From sequence record NC_028780.1: 64,000 bases of DNA. One strand, written 5' to 3'. The notes under the pieces were generated by a model. The model searched no databases and was not told the origin of the DNA. It saw nothing but the letters and a program-made list of their open reading frames with translations. Position numbers and translations under genes: made by a program. Of this stretch, positions 60,843-63,152 are shown in pieces. Position 1 is the first letter of the stretch, and every line of letters begins with the position of its first letter. Source of the stretch: Escherichia phage slur07.

Positions 60843-60915
60843 TGGGAATTAGCCAAGTTGGTAAGGCACTGGATTTTGATTCCAGGATGCAAAGGTTCGA
60901 GTCCTTTATTCCCAG
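60843..60915 (+). tRNA. tRNA-Gln (anticodon UUG)
   Basis: Cloverleaf: acceptor TGGGAAT/ATTCCCA, anticodon stem CTGGA/TCCAG with loop TTTTGAT, GGTTCGAGTCC T-loop. Confidence 0.85.
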
Positions 60916-60916
60916 C

Positions 60917-61003
60917 GCGAGAATGGTCAAATTGGTAAAGGCACAGCACTTAAAATGCTGCGGAATGATTTCCTTGTGGGTTCGAGTCCCACTTCTCGCA
61001 CCA
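60917..61003 (+). tRNA. tRNA-Leu (anticodon UAA), long variable arm
   Basis: Acceptor GCGAGAA/TTCTCGC, anticodon loop CTTAAAA, T-loop GGTTCGAGTCC, encoded CCA. Confidence 0.85.
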
Positions 61004-61008
61004 AATTT

Positions 61009-61082
<74 letters not shown>

Positions 61083-61086
61083 ATTT

Positions 61087-61737
61087 ATGACTCGTCGTGA
61101 GACGCTCAGTTCTTTATTAGGGACTGATATGCATTTTTATCTTTATAAAATAACAAATAAAATTAATAATAAAATTTATATTGGTGTGCATTCTACCGAA
61201 AATTTAGATGATGGATATATGGGTTCTGGTAAATTATTAAAAAGAGCCCAAGATAAATATTGTATAGAAAATTTTTCTAAAGAAATATTAGAGTATTTTG
61301 ACGATAAAGAATCTATGCTTGAAGCCGAGAAAAATATTGTCACAGAAGAGTTTTTAAATAGACCAGATGTGTATAATTTAAAACTTGGAGGTGAAGGTGG
61401 ATGGGATCATATAAATAATTATCCTATGACAGATCAGCAACGCGAATTAATTTCATTGGGTGTTAAAAAGGCACATTCTAACGGAAAATTAAAAGGATGG
61501 TCTTCAAATGGATTAATGAAGAATGGCTTTGCTGGTAAAACTCATTCTCAAGAAGCTAAACGTAAAATAGCAAAAGCAAACGAAGCAAAAGTTTCTGCGG
61601 ATGAAAGAAAAAGAAGAATAGAAATTTCTAAATTATATGATTTTTCTAAACGTGGCGAATTGTCTAAATATGCTAAGCATATTGGCGTAAGTCATACTCA
61701 AGCAAAAAGAATTCTAAATCAAATTAACAATATATAA
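61087..61737 (+). CDS. segB: GIY-YIG homing endonuclease embedded in tRNA cluster
   Basis: ORF between tRNA-Gly and tRNA-Ser; FYLYKITNKINNKIYIGVHS GIY-YIG module and DDGYMGSGK shared with segE; start may be ATG 61129. Confidence 0.82.
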   Translation: MTRRETLSSLLGTDMHFYLYKITNKINNKIYIGVHSTENLDDGYMGSGKLLKRAQDKYCIENFSKEILEYFDDKESMLEAEKNIVTEEFLNRPDVYNLKLGGEGGWDHINNYPMTDQQRELISLGVKKAHSNGKLKGWSSNGLMKNGFAGKTHSQEAKRKIAKANEAKVSADERKRRIEISKLYDFSKRGELSKYAKHIGVSHTQAKRILNQINNI

Positions 61738-61743
61738 ATATTT

Positions 61744-61833
61744 GGAGGCGTGGCAGAGTGGTTTAATGCACCGGTCTTGAAAACCGGCAGTCGCTCCGGC
61801 GACTCATAGGTTCAAATCCTATCGCCTCCGCCA
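61744..61833 (+). tRNA. tRNA-Ser (anticodon UGA), long variable arm
   Basis: Acceptor GGAGGCG/CGCCTCC, anticodon stem CCGGT/ACCGG with loop CTTGAAA, T-loop GGTTCAAATCC, CCA. Confidence 0.85.
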
Positions 61834-61839
61834 GTTTTT

Positions 61840-61915
61840 GCTGATTTAGCTCAGTAGGTAGAGCACCTCACTTGTAATGAGGACGTCGGCGGTTCGATTC
61901 CGTCAATCAGCACCA
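61840..61915 (+). tRNA. tRNA-Thr (anticodon UGU)
   Basis: Acceptor GCTGATT/AATCAGC, anticodon loop CTTGTAA, T-loop GGTTCGATTCC, CCA. Confidence 0.85.
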
Positions 61916-61916
61916 A

Positions 61917-61991
61917 GGCCCTGTAGCTGGAAGGTTCAAGCAAGCGACTCATAATCGCCAGATGGTGGTTCAATTCCACCCAGGGCCACCA
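61917..61991 (+). tRNA. tRNA with CAU anticodon (Ile-lysidine type or Met)
   Basis: Acceptor GGCCCTG/CAGGGCC, anticodon loop CTCATAA, T-loop GGTTCAATTCC, CCA. Confidence 0.8.
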
Positions 61992-62003
61992 AATTATGAA
62001 TTA

Positions 62004-62090
62004 GGGGAGTTATCCCGTAGAGGTAGCGGTGTGGACTGTAAATTCATTGTCATTGCGACTCGGGTGGTTCGACTCCACCACTCCCCACCA
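62004..62090 (+). tRNA. tRNA-Tyr (anticodon GUA), long variable arm
   Basis: Acceptor GGGGAGT/ACTCCCC; anticodon loop CTGTAAA; variable arm GTCATTGCGAC resembles bacterial tRNA-Tyr; T-loop GGTTCGACTCC, CCA. Confidence 0.7.
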
Positions 62091-62094
62091 ATTT

Positions 62095-62169
62095 GGATGT
62101 GTAGCTCAATGGCAGAGCGATCGCCTGTTAAGCGATTGGTTATAGGTTCGAATCCTATCACGTCCGCCA
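62095..62169 (+). tRNA. tRNA-Asn (anticodon GUU)
   Basis: Acceptor GGATGTG/CACGTCC, anticodon stem ATCGC/GCGAT with loop CTGTTAA, T-loop GGTTCGAATCC, CCA. Confidence 0.75.
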
Positions 62170-62173
62170 AATA

Positions 62174-62249
62174 CGAGGCATAGCTCAGAAGGAAGAGCAA
62201 GGACCTTCTAAGTCCTGGGTCGTAGGTTCGATCCCTACTGCCTCGACCA
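62174..62249 (+). tRNA. tRNA-Arg (anticodon UCU)
   Basis: Acceptor CGAGGCA/TGCCTCG, anticodon stem AGGAC/GTCCT with loop CTTCTAA, T-loop GGTTCGATCCC, CCA. Confidence 0.85.
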
Positions 62250-62565
62250 GACAAGAAGCCGGGTCGCTACCGGCAAGTCGTCGGACTGATGTTCCCTGTT
62301 TAAGGACTGGCATTAATAAATCTTTATGTTTTGTTAATGCCCCCTTATATCACAGCAGAAACGGCGCACCGAATTATCGATTCGAGGAAATATCTTTGCC
62401 ATAAGCCGAGTAGCGTTTTTGACGGAACGTTCGGATATGGTCGAGATATGGCCTTTTAAAAATATTGAGTAGCGTCAACTACTTAATAACCGGGTTCGAA
62501 TCCCGGCGTTTCGTACAAACACTTGCCTTAGCAGGTGGAACCCCGACAAGGTTGCCGCAAGGCTT
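62250..62565 (+). ncRNA. structured non-coding region after tRNA-Arg: candidate small stable RNAs or degenerate tRNA
   Basis: No credible ORF; tRNA-like T-arm CCGGGTTCGAATCCCGG at ~62490; 8 bp inverted repeat GGCATTAA...TTAATGCC at ~62309-62341; ends at intrinsic terminator. Confidence 0.35.
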
Positions 62566-62593
62566 AGCCCCGACCGAAAGGTTGGGGCTTTTT
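62566..62593 (+). terminator. intrinsic terminator (AGCCCCGACC-GAAA-GGTTGGGGCT plus TTTT)
   Basis: 10 bp stem, tetraloop, T-run; near-identical copy at 63125. Confidence 0.75.
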
Positions 62594-62643
62594 AGTATAA
62601 ATATAGTAGTATATTAAATCCACGAATTAAAACAGGAAATAAG

Positions 62644-63117
62644 ATGAAATCATATGCTCAATTTTTAAATGAAGCGGTGTTAAATGAAGCATCTAGCACC
62701 GAAATTCAAGCTGTCGCAAAAGCAGCCATTGCAGCGGGTAAATATTCCTATAAAGATGCTTCTGACGAATCACGATTCCAATTTGCTCGCGACATGAAAG
62801 CAGAAGGATTTACGGGAAATGCAGTTAGTATGGCCTGGAAAAGTTTAGTTGCTACTGGCGCTGCTTTTGCAAAGGCTTCGGGTAAACCTGCTCCTAAAGC
62901 AGATCCTAAAGTCACACAAGAGAAAAATATCGTTAAAGGAATTATCTCCAGATATGAAGCTATCCTTAAAGAGCTTTTAGTAATCAAAACTGAAGGTCAA
63001 AAGTTAGCTCGTGCTTATAGTTTCAAAGATAATCCACATGCTCATGACCTAGAGTATGTTGAAGACATCCAAAAAATTATTAAAGACCGCATTTGGTCTG
63101 CTAAACAAATCAAATAA
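62644..63117 (+). CDS. hypothetical protein with capsid-targeting-like N-terminus (157 aa)
   Basis: N-terminus MKSYAQFLNEAVLNEA resembles the MKTYQEFIAE internal-protein leader; Ala/Lys-rich; flanked by twin terminators. Confidence 0.6.
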   Translation: MKSYAQFLNEAVLNEASSTEIQAVAKAAIAAGKYSYKDASDESRFQFARDMKAEGFTGNAVSMAWKSLVATGAAFAKASGKPAPKADPKVTQEKNIVKGIISRYEAILKELLVIKTEGQKLARAYSFKDNPHAHDLEYVEDIQKIIKDRIWSAKQIK

Positions 63118-63124
63118 CATTCTT

Positions 63125-63152
63125 AGCCCCGACCAAAAGGTTGGGGCTTTTT
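63125..63152 (+). terminator. intrinsic terminator, second copy (loop AAAA)
   Basis: Same stem as 62566-62593, T-run. Confidence 0.75.

Follow-up and report, generated by a model that had tools for sequence, protein, structure and literature searches.

Our analysis indicates that interval 62250-62565 of Escherichia phage slur07 DNA (NC_028780.1; the 64,000 nt analysed are called the window below) very probably holds two stable-RNA genes of a T4-type tRNA operon, rnaD and then rnaC, followed by a trailer and the operon terminator (Table 1). At the level of sequence, the identity of both genes is established by homology and synteny. The element is the long-known rnaD/rnaC pair of T4-type phages, and this classification is not new: the two RNAs, also called species 2 and species 1, have been known for about 50 years and are made from the end of the T4-type tRNA operon. 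Our rediscovery of T4 RNAs C and D bears on the old question of the role of two conserved, abundant RNAs. The covariation-backed fold of rnaC, with its acceptor-like stem, four-way junction and loop-loop contact, and the rnaD scaffold with its variable tip provide experimental handles on that question. Possibly useful additions are the details of the rnaC fold, the pairing between its loops and the occurrence of rnaD outside the T4 family.

Identity and position of the two RNA genes

A T4-type tRNA cluster on the + strand fills the last 3 kb of the window, with nine tRNAs found by ARAGORN (60843-62249). The CCA encoded by the last of them, tRNA-Arg, ends one base before rnaD. The RB6 record lists an ncRNA "rnaD, species II RNA" and an ncRNA "rnaC" immediately 3' of tRNA-Arg, and in the T4 record (NC_000866) rnaD ("small, stable RNA; species 2 RNA") and rnaC ("species 1 RNA") are misc_RNA features. 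The RNA ends used here are taken from these GenBank annotations of T4 and RB6, which place the 3' end of rnaD at 62370 and 62371, respectively.

Over its full length, rnaC has the same base as T4 rnaC at 137 of 139 positions (98.6% identity). The overall identity of rnaD to T4 rnaD is 84.4%, with nearly identical conserved 5' and 3' modules, and 120 of its 121 positions match the RB6 ncRNA feature. The sole difference is at the 3' terminus, where RB6 has A and this phage has G; the gene ends in CACCG in this phage and in CACCA in T4 and RB6 DNA. A blastn search of 50,697 phage records returned 800 matching records, mostly from E. coli/Shigella T4-like phages, the best being ECML-134 (99.7%). 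The rnaC gene lies within the tRNA gene cluster, on the same strand and upstream of the operon terminator; the rnaC family covariance model that we built finds it as a single copy (164 bits), with no extra copies within the window. Its T4 counterpart suggests that rnaC of this phage is a stable RNA of about 140 nt, and the T4 literature suggests the same of rnaD, at about 120 nt.

Table 1. Features at the 3' end of the tRNA operon (window coordinates)
Feature	Position	Strand	Remarks
tRNA-Arg (UCU), last tRNA of the cluster	62174..62249	+	ARAGORN; Rfam RF00005 65.8 bits
rnaD (species 2 RNA)	62251..62371	+	Coordinates transferred from RB6 KM606996 and T4 NC_000866
rnaD 5' hairpin, GCCGG-GUCGCUA-CCGGC	62258..62274	+	Predicted in every variant
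rnaD long stem	62277..62369	+	GUCGUCG (62277-62283) with CGGCGCAC (62362-62369)
rnaD tip hairpin	62309..62341	+	Holds 8-bp inverted repeat GGCATTAA/TTAATGCC
AAUUA spacer rnaD-rnaC, A/U-rich single strand	62372..62376	+	Between annotated ends
rnaC (species 1 RNA), 139 nt	62377..62515	+	Feature transfer by pairwise alignment with RB6 and T4
rnaC acceptor-like stem, 5' strand CGAUUCG	62378..62384	+	Pairs with 62507-62513
rnaC arm I, ~24-bp interrupted hairpin	62385..62454	+	Apical loop with UUGAC 62419-62423
rnaC loop-loop pairing	62419..62478	+	UUGAC (62419-62423) with GUCAA (62474-62478); complementarity and covariation
rnaC arm II, 10-bp hairpin	62463..62488	+	6-nt loop CGUCAA 62473-62478
rnaC T-arm, CCGGG-UUCGAAU-CCCGG	62490..62506	+	2/5 stem pairs covary
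rnaC acceptor-like stem, 3' strand CGUUUCG	62507..62513	+	Adjoins T-stem; then UACAA, not NCCA
Conserved 3' trailer, with 7-bp hairpin 62520-62537	62516..62565	+	Nearly identical in all Tequatrovirus loci
Intrinsic terminator of tRNA/stable-RNA operon	62566..62593	+	Stem-loop 62566-62589, 10 bp (7 G-C), then TTTTT

An earlier sequence-only reading had described the interval as one structured segment of about 300 nt that contains no plausible ORF and ends in a strong terminator. The interval does fold much better than shuffled sequence (z = -5.2 for rnaC and -3.2 for rnaD), but it is not one element: two RNA genes plus a 50-nt trailer compose it. No ORF longer than 50 aa overlaps it, in agreement with that reading, and the terminator, a GC-rich hairpin before a run of T, was correctly recognised and lies just beyond the end of the interval.

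Searches against known families returned tRNAs. With Rfam 15 at the gathering score, nothing but tRNAs was found in the window or in 12 related loci, and within 62250-62565 no tRNA was called by ARAGORN or by RF00005 at 29 bits or more. When the Rfam thresholds were relaxed, the only tRNA model to align with rnaC was tRNA-Sec (17 bits against the 47 needed, E = 1.4), through a stem that is rejected below. For tmRNA there was no ARAGORN call, and the best Rfam match was a 17-nt fragment (10.1 bits against the 47 needed); YrlA was not among the Rfam matches at E <= 10. In 5,426 complete E. coli genomes, blastn detected no similarity to rnaC or rnaD, a search that short seeds would escape.

Neither RNA has an Rfam family, and many records describe the DNA as hypothetical proteins or odd tRNAs. 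Many public records label rnaC and rnaD DNA as hypothetical-protein CDSs, and ncRNA features occur in only a few (T4 and the RB series). Part of rnaC is annotated as a 95-nt tRNA-Met in PG7 (L007 1554-1648) and as tRNA-Lys in phage 55 (OQ599310 158216-158363).

We also observed several differences in the neighbourhood of the two genes. A 157-aa ORF (62644-63117; PHROG 2280, no Pfam domain) lies between near-identical terminators at 62566-62593 and 63125-63152. In T4 and RB6, the first terminator runs directly into the sequence that follows the second terminator here, and it looks as if recombination at the terminator repeat had inserted the ORF (window 62566-63152). Upstream, a GIY-YIG/NUMOD3 homing-endonuclease ORF (61087-61737) is located between tRNA-Gly and tRNA-Ser, where RB6 and T4 have tRNA-Pro; no tRNA-Pro was found anywhere in the window. 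ARAGORN assigns 62004-62090 to tRNA-Tyr (87 nt, long variable arm), which Rfam does not report at the gathering threshold.

Comparative structure of rnaC and rnaD

Homologues of rnaC were collected from annotated phage records, from IMG/VR with a degenerate pattern, and from metagenomes with a second pattern that constrained only CGAGGA, the T-arm frame and the 3' tail. The set comprises 23 distinct sequences from Tequatrovirus, Kanagawavirus, Tegunavirus, Gelderlandvirus, Karamvirus and one metagenomic lineage. RNAalifold, run without structure input, returned a four-way junction. Compensatory changes occurred in 24 of its 45 pairs, and 27 pairs of the 23-sequence set changed on both sides, a number that 0 of 500 shuffles matched; these covariation counts are inflated by relatedness, because the set represents few independent lineages (about 7). 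In the same set, 93.8% of cells were paired, versus 37-44% when the 3' partners were slid by 1-3 columns. On this comparative evidence, the predicted fold of rnaC is a cloverleaf-like four-way junction in which an acceptor-like stem is stacked on the T-arm, a long arm occupies the place of the D-arm, and a 10-bp arm that of the anticodon arm.

The T-arm is the CCGGGTTCGAATCCCGG element to which the sequence-only reading had drawn attention. We located it as the sole match in the window even with 3 mismatches, with 0 expected in shuffles. The further claim that it lacks a matching acceptor stem was wrong, since the strand adjoining the T-stem pairs, with compensatory changes, with a strand 113 nt upstream. 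RNAalifold recovers this acceptor-like stem without being told. At its pair 3, 11 sequences have A-U and 12 have G-C, and the two central U.U mismatches, which are present in most lineages, become U-A and C-G in Tegunavirus. As in tRNAs, the 7-bp acceptor stem is contiguous with a 5-bp T-stem, with a T-loop that follows the consensus UUCRANY. The next-best matches of the rnaC family model are genuine tRNAs (11-20 bits); therefore, the terminal module of rnaC is tRNA-like.

In Kanagawavirus rnaC (L004, L025), the T-loop is the non-canonical UGCAUGC, which indicates that the T-loop consensus is not universally needed. Concurrently with this change, UGG is replaced by CUCG just 5' of the CCU strand of a 3-bp helix at the base of arm I. 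The joint change, seen in one lineage only, may reflect a tertiary contact akin to that of the tRNA D-loop GG with the T-loop.

The two internal arms combine variable stems with constant loops. The 3-bp helix at the base of arm I (AGG 62385-62387 with CCU 62452-62454) is invariant, while 14 of the 21 variable-arm pairs show changes on both sides. An A/U-rich linker of 8 nt separates arm I from arm II, in which both-side changes were found in 8 of 10 pairs and the loop is almost invariant. Variation in the stems leaves the loops above them constant; in Gelderlandvirus nearly all of arm I is replaced, yet UUUGACG is retained.

The two loops are complementary, and all 5 pairs of the loop-loop helix form in 23 of 23 sequences. 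The loops read UUGAU/AUCAA in Tegunavirus and UUGGC/GCCAA in the metagenomic lineage L028/L037, for which the retrieval pattern constrained neither loop. The helix has thus undergone two independent double changes at different positions, which points to pairing. The contact may be intramolecular or intermolecular; an intramolecular one would need a sharp bend in arm I, because its ~24 bp far exceed the 10 bp of arm II.

A 9-nt direct repeat, GAGUAGCGU, is present at 62408-62416 and 62467-62475, in the 5' strands of arms I and II just before the pairing loops, and may be the trace of an internal duplication. Several other pairings were considered and rejected. An alternative acceptor stem between the internal ACGGAACG (62422-62429) and 62507-62514 shows no compensatory change, is mismatched at one position in 9 of 19 sequences, is mismatched where covariation is seen in the terminal stem, and clashes with a covarying helix; this is the stem used by the weak Rfam tRNA-Sec alignment and by the 95-nt "tRNA-Met" of PG7. 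An 8-nt complementarity between the 3' end of tRNA-Arg (62242-62249) and arm I (62438-62445) is expected about once by chance, on a rough estimate, and by inspection it is absent from the T4 sequence. Pairing of the rnaD loop GUCGCUA with the repeated GAGUAGCGU of rnaC was dropped because the arm II partner is not conserved in other genera.

For rnaD, the RNAalifold consensus of 21 sequences contains compensatory changes in 11 of 20 pairs, and all individual folds have the same architecture, a 5' hairpin with loop GUCGCUA and a long stem. Both sides have changed in 4 of the 5 stem pairs of the 5' hairpin (e.g. G-C/A-U, C-G/U-A; n=21 sequences), and UCCCUG (62293-62298) is an invariant unpaired motif. 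The inverted repeat noticed in the sequence-only reading was found at 62309-62316 and 62334-62341, where it extends to 12-nt arms with 92% complementarity. The tip that carries it belongs to one of at least 4 non-homologous classes, of differing lengths, that occupy the same conserved scaffold among otherwise near-identical phages. The predicted structure of rnaD is accordingly a 5' hairpin and a long stem whose base is conserved and whose tip is exchangeable. A hammerhead ribozyme in rnaD (CUGAUG...GAAAC) was rejected: the strands 5' of CUGAUG and 3' of GAAAC pair mutually, a forbidden topology; the core is CUGAUGU, not CUGANGA; and no Rfam match was obtained at E <= 10.

When a T4-like phage was evolved on the semi-permissive E. 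coli ECOR34, an rnaD SNP was the only mutation common to 3 of 3 lines, and it was accompanied by a large gain in virulence on this strain (PMC12685909). This convergent SNP is a hint of a host-specific role, and the sole functional hint.

Processing and spread

In T4, a primary transcript of about 1.75 kb is the precursor of eight tRNAs and of the species I and II RNAs (PMC2330249, summarising earlier work), and transcription of the operon terminates after the species I gene (PMC2330249). A Northern blot detects RNAC in infected cells (PMC9697503), and both rnaC and rnaD accumulate as discrete stable RNAs (PMC9697503; PMC3014915). The published precursor and Northern blot, together with the RB6 and T4 annotation, bear out the earlier suggestion that the interval encodes small stable RNAs co-processed with the tRNAs.

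We infer that the tRNA-processing machinery of the host releases rnaD and rnaC from the polycistronic transcript of the tRNAs. The A/U-rich AAUUA spacer between them is the likely site of their endonucleolytic separation, with a cut that would be of RNase E type. The corresponding spacers in other genera are A/U-rich too (e.g. AACAAU, AAUAAA and AAUAAU). In rnaC, it is the acceptor/T-arm helix that tRNA enzymes, of RNase P type, would recognise. According to the annotation, rnaC begins one base 5' of the point where RNase P is expected to cut, and RNase E alone might therefore make this end. On the other side, the 3' end of rnaC would be trimmed back to the stem, and the trailer is presumably removed in maturation.

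The tail after the acceptor-like stem of rnaC is mostly U-ACA-A; it is U-UCA-A in Tegunavirus and U-CCA-A in L028/L037, the only lineage whose rnaC encodes CCA. The annotated end of T4 rnaC leaves only UA after the stem. Because rnaC ends in UA or UACAA and not in CCA, the RNA is presumably not aminoacylated; judged from these ends, aminoacylation is unlikely, with post-transcriptional addition of CCA as a possible route to it.

In other genera, rnaC directly follows a tRNA 3' CCA and an A/U-rich spacer of 5-6 nt, often within the cluster. It is found mid-cluster in Karamvirus and Gelderlandvirus and at the end of the cluster in Tequatrovirus. Relatives of rnaD, always after a tRNA, are present in Dhakavirus JS10, Karamvirus, Jiaodavirus, a 261-kb Straboviridae phage, Mosugukvirus PM2, where the likeness is partial only, and Vequintavirinae A7_1. 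The A7_1 homologue (L039 1498-1599) follows tRNA-Met and has a short tip; its 24-nt 5' module and 22-nt 3' module are identical to those in the window. Since A7_1 belongs to a family unrelated to T4 and has identical modules, horizontal spread of rnaD between phage families is suggested.

JS10 (L044 593-800) keeps rnaD, the trailer hairpin and the terminator, and exactly rnaC is missing. This indicates that rnaC is dispensable in the genus Dhakavirus. In Karamvirus, rnaC and rnaD are about 1 kb apart; this separation and the loss in JS10 show that the two genes are independent modules.

Conserved sequences of about 110-140 nt follow rnaC in Kanagawavirus loci (L004 1650-1760, L025) and in L019, whose rnaC is Gelderlandvirus-like, and conserved sequences in this size range also follow the rnaD-like element in Karamvirus and Jiaodavirus (L040-L043, about 680-818). 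They have no tRNA, Rfam or ORF assignment, and may be further stable RNAs of phage tRNA clusters.

Possible function and comparison with known systems

The function of rnaC and rnaD was given as unknown in papers of 2010, 2022 and 2025 (PMC3014915, PMC9697503, PMC12685909). The constraints on shape, the masked loops of rnaC, and the exchangeable tip of rnaD with its adaptive SNP suggest shape-based action on a strain-variable protein partner. We tentatively propose that the two RNAs act by shape and not by mRNA pairing: rnaC, shaped like a tRNA, would bind or act as a decoy for a tRNA-recognising protein of host or phage, and rnaD would be a scaffold whose variable tip tunes a host-strain-specific interaction. 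A more specific form of this proposal is speculative. In it, rnaC would be a dedicated tRNA mimic that diverts a host tRNA-recognising protein, rnaD would be a second, widely exchanged scaffold whose swappable tip sets strain specificity, and the two would constitute a host-adaptation module. The mimic would keep only the acceptor/T-arm face of a tRNA, the rest of the molecule being locked by the loop-loop contact, and would be made late and in quantity; its target might be, for example, a defence nuclease that attacks tRNAs, a processing enzyme or a sensor. If true, rnaC and rnaD would represent an RNA-based host-adaptation module that has gone unnoticed in the best-studied phage. Deletion of the tRNA region leaves T4 viable on laboratory hosts, and JS10 is without rnaC; any role of the two RNAs is therefore conditional.

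Three other readings have a lower probability than the shape-based decoy. The structures could act purely in cis, with no part to play once released, and serve only to organise how the transcript of the tRNA operon is processed, protected at its 3' end or terminated. In favour of this, every element is found within a phage tRNA cluster or at its end, immediately 3' of a tRNA, and a conserved trailer and terminator follow. This reading is nevertheless improbable, since the RNAs accumulate as discrete stable species (PMC9697503; PMC3014915), the position of rnaC within the cluster varies between genera, and JS10 has the cluster, trailer and terminator without rnaC. The invariant loops and the covarying loop-loop contact also exceed the needs of a processing spacer.

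It is likewise doubtful that the two are base-pairing regulatory sRNAs whose seeds against mRNAs of host or phage would be the rnaD tip or the rnaC loops. Hfq-dependent sRNAs typically have a terminator hairpin and U-tail, which here are outside the mature RNAs, and the rnaC loops are complementary and covary with each other, a pattern that favours an internal contact, or one with itself, over an mRNA target. The E. coli genomes contain no blastn similarity, although short seeds escape such a search. What speaks for this reading is the hypervariable rnaD tip on a conserved scaffold, the published adaptive SNP in rnaD (PMC12685909), and the use of the term "small regulatory RNAs" in one report (PMC9697503).

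The complementary, covarying loops of rnaC could also pair between molecules and form dimers or rings like those of phi29 packaging RNA, and we infer that, with arms of such unequal length, an intramolecular kiss makes high demands on geometry. Self-assembly of this kind is very unlikely: multimers are not known, and T4 DNA packaging works in vitro without RNA.

A decayed tRNA gene without present function, the other possibility raised by the sequence-only reading, finds no support as a description of the present state and is effectively excluded. It is true that rnaC has a canonical T-arm and an acceptor-like stem, that pipelines call part of it tRNA-Met (PG7, 95 nt) or tRNA-Lys (phage 55), and that a weak tRNA-Sec alignment exists (17 bits, E = 1.4). 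However, rnaC is 98.6% identical to its T4 counterpart, yet the adjacent tRNA-Arg differs from that of T4 at most aligned positions. The RNA is under strong structural constraint across genera, with compensatory changes in all helices across the five named genera and invariant loops, features that pseudogenes would not keep. Descent of rnaC from a tRNA is plausible. The reading as short protein-coding genes is also effectively excluded, as the least probable of all: CDS features overlap the match in many phage records as "hypothetical protein" and ORFs of 42-50 aa exist, but these are short frames that never cover either RNA from end to end, the substitutions follow the pairing of the stems and not the codons, and the rnaD tip is swapped for unrelated sequence of other length.

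With respect to known systems, phi29 pRNA is similar to rnaC in size, is likewise a stable RNA encoded by a phage, and also has two loops that are complementary; the pRNA loops covary between related phages; the two RNAs have no similarity in sequence or secondary structure. The tRNA-like domains of tmRNA and bacterial Y-like RNA (YrlA), which are recognised by tRNA enzymes, resemble rnaC in placing an acceptor/T-arm module on the non-tRNA body of a stable RNA. In contrast to these, rnaC has no tag reading frame, no CCA end and no evident Ro-binding stem.

The likeness of rnaC to tRNA itself comprises the 7-bp acceptor stem adjoining a 5-bp T-stem with a UUCGAAU loop, the four-way junction, and the location of the gene among tRNA genes with tRNA-type spacers between. 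It differs from tRNA in its length of 139 nt, in the ~24-bp arm that stands for the D-arm, and in the two U.U mismatches of its acceptor stem. In place of an anticodon arm with a 7-nt loop, it has the 10-bp arm, whose 6-nt loop (CGUCAA) pairs with another loop, and it ends in UACAA in place of NCCA.

The closest systems are the T4 genes themselves. The T4 locus is without the 157-aa ORF and the second terminator copy found downstream here, and the tip hairpin of T4 rnaD is unlike the one in this phage. T4 rnaC, too, is the final gene of its tRNA operon, ahead of the same terminator, and is distinguished by two substitutions only; T4 rnaD likewise begins one base after tRNA-Arg and has the same 5' hairpin, stem base and UCCCUG motif.
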